This document shows, piece after piece, positions 21,493 to 32,637 of a DNA stretch of 64,000 bases. Position numbers and translations under genes: made by a program. Below the pieces are notes generated by a model, which did no database searches, was not told the origin of the DNA, and saw only the letters and a list, made by a program, of their open reading frames with translations. The stretch spans positions 4,898,001 through 4,962,000 of the forward strand of contig CM030333.1 in assembly GCA_017654855.1 (NCBI GenBank). Direction: 5' to 3'. This stretch comes from Podospora anserina. Its lineage: Eukaryota. The first letter of the stretch is position 1. Each line of letters opens with the position of its first letter.

Positions 21493-22581
21493 ATGGCTGT
21501 CGGAACGCTCTCTCTCTTTTTCCCCGTCTTCATCCCGGCCGCCACAGCGGGATTGGTCTATGCTGGTCACCGCGCAACTTACCTCAACTGGAGGGCGATC
21601 TTGACCGAGTTCCTCACGGGACCTGGTCGGACAAGTCGGATCCTACTTCTGCTGTTTTTGGGTCTCAACTGGAAGAGCTTGCCCCTTGGGTGGACGGTAT
21701 GTATCTCGTGATATTACCTGGTGACACCAAGCTGACATTTGCGCCGCTAGGTTCGGATCTTCCATTCCTTCATTTTCCACTTCGCGCGCCGCCCAAAGAC
21801 TCTTCCTCAGCGCGCCCTCTTCCACTACAGCGTTACCTCCTCTCGTACCTCTCTCCTCGAAACCGACTACAACTTCCACAAGTCCAACTCGACCTACTTT
21901 GCCGATGTCGACGTTTCGCGTTCCCACCTGGTCACTCATCTGCTGGGCCCATCCATGCCAATCATTGGCGACAACGAGAAGAACAAGCTGGTTCTGGACA
22001 AGGATGGCAAGGTGATTAAGGGGAGCTTTGGCATAGGCCTGGGAGCCGTCTTTTGCTCTTTCCGCCGCGAGATTGGCCCCATGCAAGGTTACGAGATGTG
22101 GAGCAGAATCGTGAGCTGGGATCGCAAGTGGCTTTACATTGTGACGCACTTTGTTGTCAAGGGCAAGGTCAAGCCTACCAGCTGGGACGGCAGGTGGAAG
22201 GGTCCGACACGCAGCAAGATCCAAAAGGCCGAGGATGGGTCGGCCGTGGAGGAGCCGGATTGGAGCAAGTACATTCACGCCACTGCCATCAGCAAGTACG
22301 TGTTCAAGCTAGGGCGCTTCACCATTCACCCTTCGATCATGATCCAGGCTGGTGGCTTGTTGCCCGAGAGACCAGGTGGCTGGAGAGGTGGTGAGGATGA
22401 CTGCGGAGACCTGGTTGACTTGGGAGAGATCGATGCTGAGGGCGAGTGGGACTGGAAGAAGGTTGAGGCTGAGCGGAGAAAGGGTCTGGATTATGCTAAT
22501 CACTTTGGGGCGTTGGACGGCACGAATCTTTTGTTTGATGGTGGCGAGGATGGCGCTATTGGCAACTTCCCTATTGGTTAA
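21493..22581 (+). CDS. Membrane-anchored hotdog-fold thioesterase-like protein (THEM6-like), 2 exons
   Basis: Hydrophobic N-terminus. Intron 21697-21750 (GTATGT..CTAG) gives LETDYNFHKSNSTYFADVDVSRSHL and later FRREIGPMQGYEMWSRIVSWDRKWLYIVTHF. Confidence 0.8.
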
Positions 22582-23375: not shown

Positions 23376-24180
23376 TTCGAACTAGATGAGTTTTTTGACA
23401 TCGATATTCTGTTTCAAAAAGCAAAAAGCCTGGTGTCTTGATGGGGAAGTAGGGGATCGCGGCTCTCTTATCATTGCTGGACAGTGTTATTATATGCAGT
23501 CTCACATATCGGATACAACGGCACACTGTGGACTTTCGGACCACACATGAATTTCGTGCGCCTAAATACACACGGCAATAAACATCTGATGTGATGAAGT
23601 GAGTACCTAATCTGATGTTCTTCGGATATGTCGAGACTATCTCTCATACTTGTGGGTTCAATGCAGTGAGGGTTAGGGTTATTATGTCTACGCGTTTAGG
23701 GCCTTCAGGGGCTCAGGGGGTTGACTCGCAGACGAGTAAGGGGTAACACATGGGGCCAGAGCAACACTGAAAGTCCACATTTAAAATGTACAAAACCTGA
23801 CTCGTTTTACCAACACTTTCAAAGCTATTTCCACAGCTTTGATATGGGATCCTCAATTTTGTCAACAGCAAGAAGTCGTCGCTGGAATGCAGACCCGACA
23901 TGCAATTATGCGGTCACGGCGCCGAGACAAGATGCCTCGGCAAACCTCCGGCATCGCCTTCACATTCTCCAACGGGAGTGGGTTCCCGATTCCACATCTC
24001 GTTTCTAGTCAATCCGAACAATCGATATGGTTGATATCGCAATCCCCACTGCAATTCTCTAGTATTTCAGCCACTCACTCACATATTTTTGCCATCACGA
24101 CTCATTCATTCTTGATCCGTACATCCCGGTGGCCTCTACCTATAATTCTCAAACGTAACCCCTGACCGCAGCACGACAAA

Positions 24181-24903
24181 ATGGCATCCTCCAAAGCCTC
24201 ACCATCACCACCACCATCAACAACCGAAAGTAAACAACAAAACCCACAATCAGAAGAAATGGTCACCCCAACCGCCTCAGACATCTCCTCCGTCCTCGAC
24301 TCCCCGGCCAACAAGGCCCAAGAAGCCCACCACATCGCCTTCTTCAATTCAATACCCTGGTGCTCCTCCCTCCTCGGCTCCAACCCCAACCTCATCATCT
24401 CCCAGTCCGTCTCCCGCATCATCCGCCCGTCTGGGTGCGAGGAGGACGCGCTCATCTCGCAGACGCTAAACTCGCCGGACGCCATCCCGGCCTACATCAC
24501 TTTTTACTCTCCCCCTCCCAAACCGACGGATTATGTCAATGAGGTCAAGTCGCTTATTGCCTTGGGACCGAAGGTGAATGGGTGGGAGGGTATCTGCCAT
24601 GGGGGGATTGTCATGACGCTTTTGGATGAGGTGATGGGGCAGATTTTTGCGGTCAACAAGGACAGCGGGGCGATGGGGAGCAAGATGCCGCTTTTGACGG
24701 GGTATCTGAACACTGAGTTTAAGAGGCCTGTGAGAACAGGGACGAAGGAGAAGCCGGCGATTGTGTTGGTTGTTGCTAGGATGACCAAGATCGAGGGAAG
24801 GAAGCACTTTTGCGAGGGGGTGGTGTATGGGGATGAGGAGGGGAGGAATGAGCTGGCGAGGGCGGAGGCCTTGTTTGTGCAGTTGAGGGAGCAGAAGCTG
24901 TGA
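24181..24903 (+). CDS. PaaI/4HBT-type hotdog thioesterase superfamily protein
   Basis: Intronless 240-aa ORF with NGWEGICHGGIVMTLLDEVMG, TGYLNTEFKRPV, EGRK and ARAEALFV. Confidence 0.88.
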   Translation: MASSKASPSPPPSTTESKQQNPQSEEMVTPTASDISSVLDSPANKAQEAHHIAFFNSIPWCSSLLGSNPNLIISQSVSRIIRPSGCEEDALISQTLNSPDAIPAYITFYSPPPKPTDYVNEVKSLIALGPKVNGWEGICHGGIVMTLLDEVMGQIFAVNKDSGAMGSKMPLLTGYLNTEFKRPVRTGTKEKPAIVLVVARMTKIEGRKHFCEGVVYGDEEGRNELARAEALFVQLREQKL

Positions 24904-25724
24904 AGAGGTAATTTCAAAAGGGTATAGGATATATGCATCGTGGTGTTTTGATAGAGGGAGCGATAATGTTGGAGAGCGAGGAGCTTGGGGTTGCTTGCAT
25001 CTGAATAGACTACATTGGGAACAGTCCTACCTAATAGATAGCATGGAGTAAGAATTACCGTGGTACCGGTTCGCAATTTCAATTTCAAGCGGCGGCCAAC
25101 CTGGAAGACATTGAAATATGTTGAGTCTGCCCACCCAACCTGTCCAGTACCCTCGCAAGATTCATAAACTAAAGCTTCTTGCCAGCTGGGATTTCAATTG
25201 TATCTCTCTTATGAAGAATGGCGAGTTTCTCGATCATGATATGTCTGTCCTTTTCAATGTCGCTTTCAACTTCATTAAGATAAATCCCGTGGACTTGTGA
25301 ACCGTTCATGAGTGGCTCACTTTTCTCAGCCAAATCGTATATGTATGTGTCAAGACGCAAGATACAGCACCTAACGCCGTCCGCCATTTGCACTGACAGG
25401 GAGGGAAGCGCGCGGAGAAAGTGCCCGTATCTTCACAAGATAAACTTGGTCTAAAGCAGAGGTTTCATGTACCACTGTGTGCGGCAATGTTTTATATGTC
25501 CTGTTTTTATTAAGATACTCATGTACATGAAACCATGATCCAATCATCACCAAAAAACCAAATGATGGAATAAAAAGCAAGCCTAATTATCTTATAGATA
25601 AAAATAGAGCCTTGATGATAGCACGCACATACATCACATTAATCTAACCTTTGCCCAAGATCCATAACACCATCGCTCTTAACCCTCGAAAGTAGCAAAA
25701 AATAGAGATAAAAACAACAAAACA

Positions 25725-27962
25725 TCACTCGCAACCCTCCACATCGGGGTCAACATCAGTTTCCCCATCACTAATCTCTGTCTTGCTGCTGATTGAACCA
25801 TCAATGTCAATCGTAAAGGCCTTCTGGACTTCCTCTCCCAGCCTGATGACGTCTCGCCTGCTCTCTCTGTTCACAACCAGCAGATGAGCAACATATGTCC
25901 TTGCCCCATCTGTGTAAAGATCAACCTTGTCTCCGGGGACACAATAGTCAACGCCCAGAACAATCTTGTCTGCCAGGTCCGGTCTTCGGCGCTTGAGCTC
26001 CTCGCATGGGGCTAGCTTTGACGGCCATTGCACAGTACCAGCGGCTGGAGCAGGAATGTATACCAGTCGAGACCAGTACTGTGCTCCCCTTTTCGAATCA
26101 TTGGTGTTGTCACCGAGCACATGGCTGTAGGGCCTAGTGGTCAGTCGTAACCTGTTCTTATCACCCGCAGCAGCCAGCATGTGTGCAGCAAAGTAGTCCA
26201 CGCCGTATGTATGACGTGTTGGAACAGTGACTCGGTATCCAGGCGGGCGGGCATTGATCTCGATCAGCTTGCACTCGGCTCCCGACTCGGGCAAAGATTT
26301 GGCGTGCTTGAGGACAAGATCGATCACGCCATCTTGCTTGCGGTACTCGAATGTGGAGCTCACCATTCTCGCCTCGACATGGAAGACACCGGTGCAAAAT
26401 CCTAGATTGACAAGAATATCTCGGAGTGTCGACTTTGCAATGTCTTGTTCCTGGGCAGGAAGGGCGGAAGGGAGAGTGAGGGCCTCTGGCGAAAAGGTTG
26501 AATGGACGGTAGCAGCGCTCGAGTCAGCATCGCAGGGTGGTTCATCTGCGATTTCGGAAAATAGAATCTCCCCGTCGAGAAGCACAAAGTTGACATCCAT
26601 TTCTGGACCATCAAAGAAGGGCTCAATGACGGCCGCACTGCCATGTCGAGAAGTAGCCTTTTGAACTGCAGTGGCAAGATCGGCGAGGTTGTTGACTTTT
26701 GACACGCATTCCGAGGACCACCCTTTGGTGGGTTTGACGATAAGGGGAAATCTGGGGATGAACTCGGCCTGCTGGTTACCTCCACTTGCTAGCAAAGACT
26801 CCAGCTCTCTCACATTGTGGACTCTGGCAGTCTGACAAGGAACGTTCTGTAGAAGCCGTGATCGATATTTGTCCACAGATGTCTCAAAGGCGGCCACGGG
26901 ACTGGTGGGGAGTCCCAATGCCTCTGCGACCTGAGCCACTGCCACAAAAAAGTTGTCCGACAGTGTCAAGACACCATGGATGGGAAGAGGGTAGCTGACA
27001 ATGGACTGGATGATGCGGTCAACCACTCCTGCATCCTCTGTCATGTCAGTGACAAGGAAGGCTTCCCGATGCATCTTGTTTTCTTCTGTGTCTGCTTGAA
27101 GCCAATGGCCCTCTTCGTCAACGATAACCAAGTCAAGACCTAATGCTTTGGCGGCACGATAGACTGGACCTCCTGCCGTGATGTTTGGTCTACCGCGAAT
27201 GAGCGCCACCCGTTGCCGGGGAATTGGTGTGCTGGAGAGCCATGGTGCATTGTGAAGACGATCACGCAGCTCCTCGGTCAGCCTTGTCCTGTAAATTTCC
27301 AAGTCGACGAACGAGACAGAGGTTGGCAAATCCTCCCATTGAACAACTCCAGCAGCCGACTCAACCAACGTGGCAAGATCATGTTCTGAGGTAACCGGGC
27401 CCGGGGCGGGACAAGTGGCAGAATATTTCTGTAGTGGGCGCAAAGGCTCATGGGTCCGTAATATCTTGTATGGGAAATCCTGGAGGCGAAGTTGGAGGAA
27501 GTCGGATCGGGTCACGTAGCCGTTGGTAGTAGGAAGAACAATGGTAAAAACAGATATGGCTGAAGCAGACCAACTGGGAGAGCCAAGACCGATGGTTTGT
27601 AGAGCCTCAATGAATGGGCTTGGCGGAGTGCTTCTGAGCCCGGTGCTTCCGATTCCGTTGTGTTGAGAATAGGGTTGGGATGGGTTTTGCAGAGCTGAAG
27701 ATTGTGAAGAGGATGGGAAAACCACCACGTTGGCGATGGAATACAGCTCGCAGAGGGGAATAACCTCGCCAAACAAGGGCCGATAGAGATTGGTTGGCCC
27801 TGCAGAGATTTTAGCAATGCTCACTTGGCGGACAGGAAGAAGGGCTGGCTGTTTCTTACTGCTCAGAGGTTGTTGTGTAAAGGTAGATGTAACCGATGAG
27901 ATGCTGCTGGTCAGTTTATGGCCCAGACTGGCCCTTTCACCAGAGAATGTTCCTACTGCCAT
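25725..27962 (-). CDS. ATP-grasp amino-acid ligase (L-amino acid ligase / carnosine synthase / fungal FsqD-like)
   Basis: Intronless 745-aa ORF with ALGLDLVIVD, VAEALGLPT, DKYRSR, PLIVKPTKGWSSECVSKV, IEPFFDGPEMDVN, GVFHVEAR and LIEINARPPG (ATP-grasp ExNxR). Confidence 0.9.
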   Translation of the reverse strand: MAVGTFSGERASLGHKLTSSISSVTSTFTQQPLSSKKQPALLPVRQVSIAKISAGPTNLYRPLFGEVIPLCELYSIANVVVFPSSSQSSALQNPSQPYSQHNGIGSTGLRSTPPSPFIEALQTIGLGSPSWSASAISVFTIVLPTTNGYVTRSDFLQLRLQDFPYKILRTHEPLRPLQKYSATCPAPGPVTSEHDLATLVESAAGVVQWEDLPTSVSFVDLEIYRTRLTEELRDRLHNAPWLSSTPIPRQRVALIRGRPNITAGGPVYRAAKALGLDLVIVDEEGHWLQADTEENKMHREAFLVTDMTEDAGVVDRIIQSIVSYPLPIHGVLTLSDNFFVAVAQVAEALGLPTSPVAAFETSVDKYRSRLLQNVPCQTARVHNVRELESLLASGGNQQAEFIPRFPLIVKPTKGWSSECVSKVNNLADLATAVQKATSRHGSAAVIEPFFDGPEMDVNFVLLDGEILFSEIADEPPCDADSSAATVHSTFSPEALTLPSALPAQEQDIAKSTLRDILVNLGFCTGVFHVEARMVSSTFEYRKQDGVIDLVLKHAKSLPESGAECKLIEINARPPGYRVTVPTRHTYGVDYFAAHMLAAAGDKNRLRLTTRPYSHVLGDNTNDSKRGAQYWSRLVYIPAPAAGTVQWPSKLAPCEELKRRRPDLADKIVLGVDYCVPGDKVDLYTDGARTYVAHLLVVNRESRRDVIRLGEEVQKAFTIDIDGSISSKTEISDGETDVDPDVEGCE

Positions 27963-28397
27963 GTTGATGCCACGATGTTGAACAGTGGATCGTTTGGTGA
28001 GTCAGAGAACAGAGAAAGAGCAAGAGTGGGAAGGTTTTGGGGACGGAGGTGAGTGTGTTGGAATCAGGAGCAGAAAAAGGGCGAGAGTTGAGGGAAAAGA
28101 AGGCAACTTGGCAAGAGCAAGGCGACAATGGGACAGGCTGGATATTTTGTTGCAAAAAAGGATGCCACGACCAGACCACCAAACGAGGGTTGCTCACCGC
28201 TGGACCCGGACCTAAAGAAGATTCCAAGACATCCAATGCCGCGGAAGCAGTGGAACAGGGCACACAATACCTAGCTTGCATCGGCTGCGTCATGGGGGCA
28301 CGCAGCAGTACTGAGACGTCGATATTGGCACGGCATGACGGGAGTGAGACTCACGGGCTGATTGAGCCGGAGACGGAGATTGATCTAGAGGGTGAGA

Positions 28398-28913
28398 ACC
28401 TTGATGGGCTCCATCTGATAATCTGCGATGATCTGATAAGCAAATTTAGACCCACTTGTGCCCTTGCGACCCCGGCCACACCCCTATCTCCTTCCCCTGT
28501 GTTCCCGTGCCTGGCCCTTTCCTTTTTCTCAACGTCTGTGCCCCCTTGCCTGTGGATTGCTCTTGCCCCAAATATTAAATGCTCAACCCCGTACCTTCCG
28601 GCAGAGCAAGCAACAACGGCTCCGTTAGGACTTGCCATAGGAAAGAATGGAGCCGATACCGCAGCAGACACAGAGAAGAGAGGTGACATTGGGCCACGAC
28701 CGAGTGAAACATGCGGCTTCGGATAAAATTTGTCCAGACAGCCAAGAACCTTGACGGCTGGAATCAGACACCTCAGTGTGCACCTTGATGGCCATATTCT
28801 GCGGCTTCAGCATTAAAAGATGATCAAAACGGCTGGTTGGATCCTCTGCGGAGGGCTTCATCTCCTTCCCAAATTGACTGACGGCCTCAAAAAAAAATAG
28901 CGCTCATCAAGGG
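28398..28913. promoter_or_regulatory. Bidirectional promoter with candidate iron-GATA (SreA/SRE) and zinc (ZafA/Zap1) response elements
   Basis: ATCTGATAA at 28413-28421 and 28431-28439. ACCTTGA(T/C)GG (CCRTCAAGGT on the - strand) at 28398-28407, 28748-28757 and 28782-28791, plus a near match CATCAAGGG at 28905-28913. Confidence 0.62.
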
Positions 28914-29314
28914 GAATGGAACACCGCTTGTCTAACAAACATGCGTCTCGTCCGGTCCTATGTGGGCACCCTGCGGGCTGATCTGCAGGTGCAGAGGCTG
29001 CAGCAGATATAGAGCGTGATGCTGCTGTTTACTTTGGGAGGTTTGCTGCTTGCGTGCAATTCCACCCTTCTCGAAGAGCAGCAATTTCCATGTTGTTGAG
29101 ATCATCGGTCACACACTGCCACCGAGACCATCTCTGAGCAACTGCCACCACAATAGTCACCACACTTGTATCTCTTCCTGAGTGCCTATATCAAGCAGCA
29201 GCAACACTCTTGCCGCCATATCTTGAGTGACAAACCCTCACGGAATCTATTATCCCGAACACACATCTCAACACTCACAGCCGCACGCTCCGTCATCCGG
29301 TTTCACCCGTCACC

Positions 29315-30423
29315 ATGCCTCTTCTTGCCTCCTGGCTGCGCATTGGTAGCCCCACAAAAAAGGTCGACGCATGTTCTCGTTCGTCCCAGGATTCTTTAAC
29401 TATTGTTGAGAAAGCCGACATCCTTCAGAGCCAGAAGGCAGATGCCAGGGAGGAAAAGGTTCAGTGGCTCGTCCGGAGTATCGTCAACACCCACACCGAG
29501 CTACTCAAGCTTCCGCACCTTCGTCCAGCGCCAGCCATCAATAAGCTCTTGGGTAACCTTGTCGCCATCTGCAGCGAGATCCACGACCAAGATATTGTAG
29601 ACAAGGTGTGTCGAACTCATCACGGGAAACGTGGAAGACACGAGCTGACAAAGCCAAGGTTTTACAAAATGTGAGCGTCCAGGCTGTGTTACCGTCTCTT
29701 AGACAGATCTGTGCCCAGTCAGAATCATGTCTTGAGCTTCACTGGGCCGAACACATTCTGGAAGGCCAGACCCAGCAAGAAGTCGTCGAGCGCCTCGAGA
29801 GTTTTCCATACTATGAGAACTATGAGGATTTGACCCGACTAGAAGTCTGCTCCATCCTCTCGGCGACAAAAAAGGCACCGCGACGAGTTGCCTTCATCGG
29901 CTCCGGCCCGCTCCCTCTCACCTCGCTATGCCTTTTGCAGGCTCTCAAGAATGATGTGGCAGTGAGAAGCTTGACACAGCCAACCACCAACAACACCACC
30001 GCCACAGACAACGCAGCGAATCAGGAGCCAATTGTCCTCAACGTCGACTACGATGAAGCGGCTATCTCTGCGTCTCTCAAGTTGAGCCTTGCTCTGGGAG
30101 AGAGGGGGAATGGAATGGAATTCATCTGTGCTGAGGCAACCTCGGCTTCGGCGTCACGAGATCTCAGCGAGTTTGACGTCGTGTACATGGCTGCGTTGGT
30201 GGGAGTTACGCAGACAGACAAGGAGAAGATCATGCTGGAAGTGATCAGTCGGATGAGGAGAGGGGCGCTACTGGTTGTCCGCAGCAGTTGGGGCTTGAGG
30301 TCATGCTTATACCCAGAGGTCGACCTTGCAACTGAGACACTGCTGAAGAGGCTTGAGCCCTGTGTGGTAGTACATCCCTATAATCAGGTGGTCAACTCAG
30401 TCATCGTTGCGAGAGTGCGGTAG
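29315..30423 (+). CDS. NAS: Nicotianamine synthase (SAM-dependent aminocarboxypropyl transferase), 2 exons
   Basis: Exon 1 29315-29605, intron 29606-29658, exon 2 to 30423. NAS motifs LELHWA, FPYYENYEDLTRLE, RVAFIGSGPLPLTS, FDVVYMAALVG, GALLVVRS..GLRSCLYP and HPYNQVVNSVIVAR. Confidence 0.93.
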
Positions 30424-32046
30424 CCCCAATCTGGGCCGGACCCGGGGAAGCCGTGAGAGTCCAGTGAGCATTAAACTGGCGATAGAACTGCATGGAAGTC
30501 ATTCTTAGACATGGTTGGATATTATACTGGTATAGTCATCATATTTCTCAGAGCGGTGATGTTAGCCATGGCGTGATCCTTCGCTTCAGCCGCAGCCGTT
30601 ATCGGACTTCTGAGTACTCGGGATACGCTGGATCGATACCGTAGCAATGGGACCAATTTTATCCGCTCATGTCTTACCTACAACTGCGTCTTGTGGCTTT
30701 AGTAAACCGTCTTTGGTTTGAAGTGTGTGTGAACCAGTACGAGGCTTTAAGAAGATACGAATCAATAGTACGGGCTTCAAACCAATCACGCCTTTTCCGC
30801 TGCCACAATCTTGATGCATTTTACCTAAGATCGACCTCAGCCCTACGAACAGGGCTTGTTGAGGGTAAGCAAGCGGATAAATCCTCCGCCCGTAACCTGC
30901 TTGCTGCGAAGCTCGTGAGTGGATCGTGTTATGGGCTTGTTCGCACTCTGCTAATGCCGTTTCCAGCCACTCCGAAACATGTACCGAGATCTTCCAATGG
31001 GAAGTAAAGTCCGTCCACTGGGGAGCTTGGGAGCTGGGCGGTGCAGGTCACCAGCCCCTTCCCCGACAGCCTGACTAGCACGCCACATCTGGTGGGTGCA
31101 AGAAACCAGAAAGCGAAAAGGTTCCATTCACTCCAGTCCAGAACCTCAGATGCGAGTTCAAGATTTCGCTTTCTAACGACCTCACCAGGACTCGTACGAA
31201 CCAACCCCAAGACAATAGAACACCACTGCAGCTCTGCGGCTGAGGACGAAGCGAGGGTAAGGTATGATGTTGTTGCTTGGCATTAATGAACCACAGCACT
31301 GGATTGGGCATCGTCATATACCTGCACTGGAATACGTGCAAGATCTCGTATTCCGGCAAGCGATGAACCTCATACATACCTCCCAAACTCATGATCCAGT
31401 GCCCGACCTATTACCCTTTCGATACCACTATGCCGACCGACTTTACAGAAGGAAACAGCGGTAAGTCGGAATTCGAAATGAAAGACATGTCACCACCACG
31501 AGACTTCAGGTTTGCAACTTTCTGTACGGTCCAAGCGGGCCAAGGCTCGTGATGGAGGATATGCATTTTTCATAGGATCGACACGTAGGAACGTGCCGTA
31601 AATGTTGTGTTCTAGGTGTGTAGAGGTTGAACATGGCGGTGTACTCTGTGACTGGCGAACTACACCGAGATGGACTCGGGAGGCCCAGAAGGGAACTTGA
31701 AAGGCGAACACTCAGTGGGCTGAGGTACGTCTATTGCTTCGCCGAGAGCAGGTTTACTCAGTGTCTATTCTTAGCCCGCACCTTTGTCTTGAGGATGGAG
31801 GCCGTGGGGAGGCAGTGTGACGATGATGTTATGGTCATGAGCTGGAATGAGTGTCGTGATCTCTCGGTGTAGGTGAGGATGGAACAGGAGGTCGATGTGT
31901 ATATAACCTCGCCCTGGTCCGTCATCATTCTCATCCGTCTCATCATCACTCAAACAATCTTCACACTCACAATCAGTTTAACAACCACAACAACAACCAC
32001 CATTCCTCATATCCATATTCCAACTCAACCAATACACAAATTCAAT

Positions 32047-32637
32047 ATGTTCTCCAAGACTACCATCGTCGCCTTTCTCACTTCTTTGGCCCTCACTTCG
32101 GCCGCTCCCGCTGATGAAATCTCTGCCCGCCAGGCACCAGCCGAGATTGCTCCCACCACCGTCATCGGCCACGCTCTCGCTGACGCCTGGGACAACTACT
32201 GCTCTGCCCCTACTTCCTACGGCTATATCGCCCGCAACGTCTGGAACGGTCAGGAGTATGGCCAGACCACCCTCTTCACCTTCACCTACCCCGCCGCGTC
32301 GGCCGGCAAGCAGTGCTGGCTCGACTTCTACCACGCTCAGCCCAGCTGGATCTCCAACACCAACGGCATCCAAGTCGACGTCTTCACCTCTTGGGGCGAG
32401 AACACCTGCAACGCCGGCGACAAGTCCAACAAGCGTGACGCCAACCTTGGTCGCCTCAACGTTCCGGCTACTGGCGCGGCTACCTGGGCGGCCAAGTACA
32501 GCACTTCTTTGACTCAGAAGGGTCCTTGCAAGGCTCCTGGCTCCGTGGAGAGGCTCGAGTTGGTGGCTGTCGGGGATAACACTGGACTTTCTTACCCTCA
32601 AGGCCCTGGTGCTGGGTTGAGGATCCTGTACGCCTAA
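32047..32637 (+). CDS. Small secreted protein (possibly But2-like beta fold)
   Basis: MFSKTTIVAFLTSLALTSAAP signal peptide and an ARQ propeptide site, four Cys, strong C-ending codon bias; about 196 aa. Confidence 0.75.
   Translation: MFSKTTIVAFLTSLALTSAAPADEISARQAPAEIAPTTVIGHALADAWDNYCSAPTSYGYIARNVWNGQEYGQTTLFTFTYPAASAGKQCWLDFYHAQPSWISNTNGIQVDVFTSWGENTCNAGDKSNKRDANLGRLNVPATGAATWAAKYSTSLTQKGPCKAPGSVERLELVAVGDNTGLSYPQGPGAGLRILYA

Follow-up and report, generated by a model that had tools for sequence, protein, structure and literature searches.

What joins a nicotianamine synthase (NAS) gene to the ATP-grasp ligase gene that lies head-to-head with it in Podospora anserina? The two genes are found in a 64,000-nt stretch of contig CM030333.1 (assembly GCA_017654855.1, positions 4,898,001 to 4,962,000, forward strand; here called the window, with coordinates counted from its first nucleotide), where their start codons face each other across 1,352 bp. 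The initial annotation had described a divergent ATP-grasp and NAS pair around a 1.35-kb spacer, and this description is correct in its coordinates, with Pfam matches above cut-off. We consider it somewhat probable that the pair forms a two-gene metallophore module, conserved and under metal control, whose ligase modifies nicotianamine (NA) by forming an amide. Functional coupling of NAS and ligase is well supported; the main rival is co-regulation without shared chemistry.

Conservation of the pairing in fungi and bacteria

A metagenome scan with the ligase alignment returned 19 loci carrying a ligase relative, and 15 of them have NAS upstream on the opposite strand. In the other four (L004, L011, L013, and L017), 1,000 bp or less lies upstream of the ligase match, which places them outside the adjacency test; NAS is thus present in 15 of 15 testable loci. 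These loci represent about eight sequence lineages, with ligases 40 to 65% identical to that of the window. Ligase and NAS also carry consecutive protein accessions in all 10 species pairs looked up (Neurospora crassa, Myriangium duriaei of the Dothideomycetes, Apiosordaria, Madurella, Lasiosphaeris, Cercophora newfieldiana, Rhypophila, Naviculisporaceae sp., Apodospora, and Bombardia), and likewise, within sequence clusters, in N. tetrasperma and N. hispaniola. The genes also carry neighboring locus tags in six species (Mycothermus, Remersonia, Hirsutella minnesotensis of the Hypocreales, Humicola hyalothermophila, Cercophora sp. LCS_1, and Chaetomium olivicolor); in Ophiocordyceps camponoti-leonardi, the tags differ by four. 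The N. crassa OR74A genes are NCU09854 (ligase) and NCU09855 (NAS; assignment from Table 1 of PMC6437048, excerpt). The pairing spans Sordariales, Ophiocordycipitaceae, and Dothideomycetes. The adjacency, which the initial annotation had singled out for a synteny check, is kept and divergent in every testable case among metagenome loci, accessions, and locus tags, and it is more than chance.

No third gene is conserved with the pair: the other window genes recur in the closest loci only, and the flanks of distant loci hold unrelated families (carboxylesterase, GH71, HET, LGFP, and acyltransferase). Neither in the window nor in the flanks of the fungal loci is the pair accompanied by a conserved transporter, regulator, or backbone synthetase. 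In addition, the opine dehydrogenase (CntM) family is absent from the long open reading frames (ORFs) scanned at 21.7 to 53.3 kb of the window and from the fungal-locus flanks scanned. Downstream of the ligase, two thioesterase-fold genes at 21751-22581 and 24181-24903 (4HBT_2, 4HBT) are syntenic in the closest relatives only (L011, L013, and L016) and are therefore placed outside the conserved module.

A chance or purely historical adjacency, devoid of functional meaning, would agree with a window that lacks canonical cluster features (transporter, transcription factor, and backbone synthetase); however, the unbroken adjacency and orientation speak against it, the motifs of the spacer are conserved, and a bacterial parallel points toward function, so that we regard such an origin as extremely improbable.

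This parallel emerged when prokaryotic genomes were scanned with the NAS alignment, 80 loci being kept of the 146 relatives found. In 4 of the 80, a ligase with PF18130, PF13535, and PF18603 domains lies directly downstream of NAS on the same strand; the four belong to two Sorangium species, Pyxidicoccus fallax, and a Nitrospirota metagenome-assembled genome. Gene orders and contents are as follows.

Sorangium L027, 190-13816: TonB-dependent receptor, ABC-2 permease, PhyH dioxygenase, NAS, ligase, MFS, aminotransferase, acyl-CoA-dehydrogenase-like
Pyxidicoccus L040, 4063-11374: ABC-2, PhyH, and MFS genes with NAS and ligase
Nitrospirota locus: ABC-2 permeases, NAS, ligase overlapping the NAS end, CobW-type GTPase
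Sorangium L021, 7046-10004, no ligase match: PhyH, NAS, aminotransferase

Because L021 has a NAS cluster without a ligase, the ligase appears accessory to a NAS core in bacteria too. The Sorangium NAS is 39% identical to fungal NAS and retains the same key residues. We do not claim common descent of the fungal and bacterial pairings. The myxobacterial NAS clusters (L021, L027, and L040) carry a PhyH-type dioxygenase and a class I/II aminotransferase, a combination that resembles the logic of plant mugineic acid synthesis.

Trees of both genes, whose comparison had likewise been proposed, were quick maximum-likelihood reconstructions with SH-aLRT support only; each follows taxonomy, with a Sordariales clade supported at 98 (NAS) and 97 (ligase). 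Hypocreales and Dothideomycete members branch outside this clade in the ligase tree; in the NAS tree, they stand across the Sordariales split, among Xylariales and Leotiomycete sequences. Ligases linked to NAS group in a single clade (support, 100), and a separate paralogue clade (100) takes in an Aspergillus tubingensis protein and a second copy from Madurella. NAS is the more widespread of the two, extending to Xylariales and Leotiomycetes, for which no ligase orthologue was found among the matches listed (120 of 171). Every testable ligase orthologue lies beside NAS, and NAS, among the matches listed, often occurs without the ligase, an asymmetry that a NAS-dependent tailoring enzyme would show.

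Gene models and the two enzymes

The gene models combine the sequence, Pfam matches, and contigs of four public runs taken as RNA-derived (handles X1, X2, X6, and X8 below).

25725..27962, minus strand: ATP-grasp ligase ORF, 745 codons (ORF listing)
25725..27799, minus strand: ligase exon 2, stop codon included (ORF; PF18130 and PF13535; RNA contigs 25652/25653/25665..27798 joined to 27859)
27800..27859, minus strand: ligase intron, 60 nt, in frame, GT..AG (joint 27798>27859 in four of four runs)
27860..27962, minus strand: ligase exon 1, ATG at 27962 (ORF and RNA joint)
27963..28378, minus strand: ligase 5' untranslated region (UTR), minimum extent (contigs X1 to 28366, X2 to 28378, X6 to 28350)
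29067..29314, plus strand: NAS 5' UTR, minimum extent (contig starts X6 29067, X8 29094, X1 28514, X2 28794)
29315..30423, plus strand: NAS gene (PF03059)
29315..29605, plus strand: NAS exon 1 (sequence and spliced translation)
29606..29658, plus strand: NAS intron, 53 nt, GT..AG, phase 0 (spliced in X1, X6, and X8)
29659..30423, plus strand: NAS exon 2, stop codon included (PF03059, 87.7 bits)

RNA contigs of both genes are present in all four runs, which come from four studies (region examined, 23500-32500). The runs are labelled only "RNA?" and were taken as RNA-derived on account of GT..AG joints, adapter remnants at contig ends, and stretches left uncovered; contig ends are at most a weak hint of transcript ends, and depths were not used for ranking genes. 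The ligase protein has 725 residues, not 745, because the in-frame intron is removed. It had been called intact, and this holds for its invariant catalytic motifs, which are kept, but not for the single ORF from which it was read, since the 60-nt intron is spliced out. The spliced NAS protein has 351 residues; its intron is spliced in three of the four runs, and a contig of X2 spans it unspliced, which may reflect intron retention or pre-mRNA. An intron at a conserved position is a reported common feature of NAS genes in fungi (PMC10248798, excerpt). At position 26967, all four RNA runs read A and the window reads C, changing Leu332 (numbering of the 745-codon ORF) to Phe; since Phe is the family consensus (GVFTLSD), the window strain carries the minority residue.

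Exon 2 of NAS matches PF03059 with 87.7 bits (cut-off, 27.1), and exon 1 alone stays under the cut-off at 22.2 bits; exon 2 is also 100% identical to that of Podospora pseudocomata QC762_213390, the whole proteins being nonidentical. In an alignment of 42 fungal NAS sequences, C115, E119, E123, Y152, and V278-G279 are invariant. By spacing rather than direct alignment, this C-x3-E-x3-E...Y pattern corresponds to C69/E73/E77/Y106 of AtNAS1, together with the VG of its VGMD motif (PMC10248798, excerpt); the "MD" of that motif reads "VT" in the window protein. According to the same excerpt, E73, E77, Y106, and VGMD are needed for AtNAS1 activity, and the E73 equivalent and the VG are specific to NA-forming enzymes. 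The window NAS groups with N. crassa NAS in the Sordariales clade of the quick tree (SH-aLRT, 98). It is shown by orthology to be the counterpart of NCU09855 and is predicted to be of the class III, NA-forming type; it looks catalytically intact. Among longer NAS relatives (8,000 candidates scored), a search for fusions gave two proteins, neither with an ATP-grasp domain, which is weak evidence. Two over-long NAS proteins, P0253 (684 aa, Chaetomium olivicolor VTI74DRAFT_6368) and P0254 (660 aa, Diatrype stigma, with an alpha-kinase domain, PF02816), may be gene-model merges or true fusions.

These residues bear on the order in which the two enzymes would act. If the ligase came first, it would make a dipeptide or aminoacyl acceptor, which NAS would then alkylate with aminocarboxypropyl groups from S-adenosylmethionine (SAM), as CntL does with histidine. 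Among bacteria and archaea, NAS-like enzymes do use amino acids such as Glu, D-His, or L-His as starters (PMC9175090; PMC10248798, excerpt), and the gene order of the bacterial operon is compatible with such a route. However, the recombinant NAS from the paired N. crassa locus is reported to form NA from SAM alone, consuming three SAM per NA (PMC10248798, excerpt), and the window NAS keeps the NA-specific residues (E73 equivalent and VG of VGMD), as does the Sorangium NAS. Alkylation of a ligase-made dipeptide, one of the options first put forward for the pair, is disfavored by the N. crassa result, and we hold a ligase-first order to be quite improbable.

The ligase matches PF18130 (ATP-grasp N-terminal domain) with 73.2 bits and PF13535 with 34.5 bits, the cut-off being 27 for both; PF18603 (LAL C-terminal domain 2) is absent from the fungal ligase matches at E values up to 0.01. 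The columns of the ATP-binding VKP Lys, EPFFDGPE, and E-I-N-A-R (E-x-N-x-R) are invariant among 57 aligned ligases; the first two align to structure 3vot, and we take E-x-N-x-R to be the Mg/phosphate-binding motif. The predicted structure (pLDDT, 86; pTM, 0.84) finds its best Protein Data Bank match by Foldseek in BL00235 (3vot; E value of 1e-25, TM of 0.83 on the target); BacD/YwfE and RizA come next, and PurT and biotin carboxylases rank below these L-amino acid ligases. 3vot is also the best match by sequence (E value of 1.7e-9). A structured N-terminal domain of about 180 residues, common to the paralogue clade, precedes the ligase core. Folded alone (pLDDT, 77), it has no clear fold relative in the alignments made: the best VIA-align match reached a Z value of 6.2, to chaperone-like small alpha/beta folds and within the background range, and the ESM Atlas gave no usable match. 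On sequence and fold together, the protein is shown to be an ATP-grasp enzyme of predicted L-amino-acid-ligase type, orthologous to NCU09854; it too looks catalytically intact. Five listed orthologues bear "Carnosine synthase 1" as a mere source label. A predicted complex of the two proteins (ligase model residues 57-724, NAS 36-351) scored 0.27 (mark, 0.34) and counts neither way.

The shared spacer and its motifs

Spacers were compared from eight independent lineages, and a positional survey covered nine. The 9-mers from GGCCATCAAGGT and ATCTGATAA are common to seven of the eight lineages, the maximum in composition-preserving shuffles (n = 100) being three (91 shuffles) or four (9 shuffles). 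Two elements emerge. Element one, (G)GCCATCAAGGT(T/G), occurs two to three times per spacer and always in the ligase-sense orientation; element two, ATCTGATAA, is found in one or two copies, which always face the opposite way and, across lineages, lie no more than about 60 bp from a copy of element one, with order and orientation kept. Both are concentrated in the spacers: CCATCAAGGT is found 13 times in 10,112 bp of spacer versus 0 times in the remaining 109,932 bp of the same loci, and ATCWGATAA 7 times versus once. In the window, the corresponding sites are as follows.

28782..28791, minus strand: ZR-type motif copy 1, CCATCAAGGT
28748..28757, minus strand: ZR-type motif copy 2, CCGTCAAGGT
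28398..28407, minus strand: ZR-type motif copy 3, CCATCAAGGT, 5 bp from the nearer GATA site
28413-28421 and 28431-28439, plus strand: two ATCTGATAA sites, SreA/SRE-type GATA motif
28192..28200, minus strand: conserved GCGGTGAGC element in the ligase 5' UTR (GCGGTGAG at a similar place in seven of nine spacers)

Both CCATCAAGGT matches of the 64-kb window fall in this spacer (expected number, 0.11), as do both ATCTGATAA matches. The segment 28398-28439, with the two GATA sites and one ZR-type copy, lies between the furthest ligase-side contig end at 28378 and the furthest NAS-side contig start at 28514. Ligase-side contigs end at 28350-28378 in three studies, with no loose end there, and this hints at best weakly at a transcript start.

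ZafA, the zinc regulator of Aspergillus fumigatus, has the DNase-footprint consensus DYYVYCARGGTVYYY, of which the CARGGT core is essential (PMC6070888, excerpt). SreA-type iron repressors recognize an extended GATA motif, to which in vivo sites in Ustilago and Schizosaccharomyces pombe conform as well (PMC2610380, excerpt). Judged by motif similarity, element one fits the ZafA consensus and ATCTGATAA fits the SreA motif. All three window copies of the ZR-type motif have a CAAGGT core, and two fit DYYVYCARGGT; the full 15-nt ZafA consensus occurs five times in the spacers of eight loci and is absent from the window. We infer from these elements that the pair may be jointly induced by zinc shortage and repressed by iron. 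N. crassa NAS is reportedly induced by zinc deficiency.

The Zap1 palindrome ACCTTNAAGGT is absent from all nine spacers, and a Mac1/Cuf1-type copper element occurs in one of the nine; CCAAT and HGATAR are common across them and uninformative. The GCGGTGAGC element resembles a splice donor, and no joint of the RNA contigs was seen there.

A bidirectional metal-responsive promoter could also serve two separate pathways of one regulon, with the ligase making an unrelated amide or dipeptide for zinc or iron limitation and never touching NA. Divergent pairs that share ZafA motifs and no pathway do exist; in the aspf2-zrfC promoter of A. fumigatus, for instance, three ZafA ZR motifs drive both genes (PMC6070888, excerpt). 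The paralogue clade of the ligase was, in addition, not seen beside NAS, and neither the alignment nor the model matches brought out an NA-specific feature of the ligase. Against separate pathways stand three findings: the ligase was never seen apart from NAS in the 15 testable loci and 10 accession pairs, the adjacency outlasts all other synteny across fungal classes, and bacteria have an independent NAS-to-ligase operon, in which the genes do not share a promoter in the fungal manner. We consider co-regulation of unconnected pathways rather unlikely, and NA tailoring by the ligase is retained as the preferred explanation.

Proposed chemistry and comparison with known systems

NA has three carboxylates and an alpha-amino-acid terminus, and it could therefore serve either side of an ATP-grasp ligation. 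In the proposed route, the ligase would act downstream of NAS and on NA, phosphorylating a carboxylate with ATP and joining it to an amine; it would either attach an amino acid or amine to a carboxylate of NA or acylate NA at its terminal amino group. A nicotianamine chelator extended through an amide (a peptidyl-nicotianamine) would result, and the module would be induced when zinc, and probably iron too, is scarce. Action of the ligase on the NAS product is favored because of its strict genomic dependence on NAS, its accessory distribution, and the recurrence of the pairing in clusters with transporter and metal-related genes. It is possible rather than probable that several fungal classes, N. 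crassa included, and some myxobacteria and Nitrospirota make undescribed peptidyl-nicotianamines in this way, the ligase adding an amino acid to NA to give a chelator induced by zinc and iron starvation; histidine as that amino acid is pure conjecture.

Several points weigh against this assignment or against the metal control that goes with it. The initial annotation had put the pair forward as a candidate metallophore pathway independent of nonribosomal peptide synthetases (NRPSs), and the genomic logic of that proposal stands (conserved adjacency, a motif-bearing shared spacer, transcription in four of four runs, and the bacterial parallel); the chemistry of the ligase step is what we infer. 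The N-terminal domain and many invariant residues of the ligase also occur in the paralogue clade, which showed no NAS linkage, so that the fold carries nothing specific to NA. Xylariales and Leotiomycetes have NAS and, among the matches listed, no ligase, as do 76 of the 80 prokaryotic NAS loci. Between fungi and bacteria, the NAS-linked ligases share only 26% identity over 271 residues, and no closest-relative relation between the two is shown. Secretion is not indicated, since the fungal module has no conserved transporter. As to the spacer, none of the three ZR-type copies in the window matches the full ZafA consensus, two of them matching its 11-nt 5' part including the core; two ATCWGATAA sites in 64 kb are not rare, at least two being found in 31 of 100 shuffles; one lineage (L018) has neither motif; and ZafA and SreA binding is known from Aspergillus, not from Sordariales.

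No paper joining NAS with an ATP-grasp or amino-acid ligase was found in the searchable literature, and no open paper mentions NCU09854; subscription journals and supplements lay outside the search, and supplementary expression tables may name that gene. Within this scope, the statement accompanying the initial annotation that no fungal NAS and ATP-grasp pathway had been described holds. The pair thus appears to be a variant of NA-type metallophore pathways undescribed in the searchable literature, with strong support for coupling and a proposed chemistry.

NA-type chelators are central to plant metal nutrition and to zinc piracy by bacterial pathogens. From fungi, plain NA alone has been reported so far, from one enzyme studied in isolation; a ligase always beside NAS would mean that the pathway in fungi may physiologically end in something other than NA itself. 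In plants, the NAS product is finished by an aminotransferase/reductase route. If correct, the proposal would add a third way of finishing it, after opine dehydrogenases and that route, and with it a new tailoring logic for NA-type metallophores; it would define the first fungal metallophore independent of both NRPSs and NRPS-independent siderophore (NIS) synthetases and would assign a function to one of very few fungal enzymes of the L-amino-acid-ligase type. The presence of the pair in N. crassa (NCU09854/NCU09855) makes it directly testable there and in Podospora.

Elsewhere in the window, the gene that follows NAS (30741-32637) has a weak match to the But2 C-terminal domain (16.8 bits, under cut-off) and RNA contigs of very high word depth; transcripts upstream of it are spliced, with alternative joints 30863>30966 and 30914>30967 and a further joint 31118>31187. 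The G+C content drops to 0.385 at 48-50 kb, 0.41 at 56-58 kb, and 0.17-0.22 at 58-64 kb; our guess is that these stretches (48-50 and 56-64 kb) are degraded repeats resembling products of repeat-induced point mutation. A HET-domain (heterokaryon incompatibility) gene lies at 45351-47417 on the minus strand, and an unrelated metagenome locus has one beside the pair (L014:9918-11447), probably by coincidence in HET-rich genomes.

Among known systems, the plant mugineic acid pathway proceeds from NAS through the aminotransferase NAAT, DMAS, and the dioxygenases IDS2/3, and we know of no ATP-grasp step in it. The likeness lies in an NA core that is then tailored, the fungal tailoring being a proposal, and myxobacterial clusters resemble the plant pathway further in holding an aminotransferase and a dioxygenase by NAS; the fungal module, in contrast, has neither. 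The bacterial L-amino acid ligases BL00235, BacD/YwfE, and RizA share the PF18130 and PF13535 core with the fungal ligase and are its best structural and sequence matches, but the fungal enzyme differs in its extra N-terminal domain of about 180 residues, in having no detectable PF18603, and in an identity of only about 20%.

Few fungal natural-product ATP-grasp enzymes are on record: functions have been proposed for AnkG and FsqD and proven for Cp1B, which was compared structurally with glutathione synthetases (PMC12568646, excerpt). Like the ligase described here, they are stand-alone enzymes of the type that forms amides with ATP, outside the NRPS scheme; unlike it, none is linked to NAS in that excerpt. 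Pseudogymnoascus destructans has a proposed, copper-responsive cluster for an NA-like metallophore, with a SAM-utilizing enzyme, an opine dehydrogenase, and an MFS gene (PMC12113139). Both are fungal proposals of an NA-like metallophore under metal control, but that cluster is of the opine-dehydrogenase type, with a transporter and no ATP-grasp enzyme. The N. crassa enzyme NcNAS (NCU09855), the orthologue of the window NAS, is likewise encoded next to a ligase gene (NCU09854) and was characterized as a stand-alone NA synthase (PMC10248798, excerpt).

In promoter architecture, a close likeness is aspf2-zrfC, where one spacer with CAAGGT-core motifs (two to three in the NAS-ligase spacers) also separates divergent genes; the genes are different, and the NAS-ligase spacer adds an SreA-type GATA site, 5 bp from a ZR-type copy in the window. 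In pathway logic, the comparison is with staphylopine and pseudopaline, made by CntL and CntM from Zur-regulated cnt operons (PMC9175090). The fungal partner is an ATP-grasp amide ligase, not an NAD(P)H-dependent opine dehydrogenase; the scanned ORFs beside the fungal pair include no opine dehydrogenase, racemase, or transporter; and the window NAS is of the three-SAM, NA-forming type. What the systems share is a NAS-family enzyme with one adjacent finishing enzyme; the bacterial pair is induced by zinc shortage and yields an aminopolycarboxylate chelator (PMC9175090), and the fungal pair would probably do the same.

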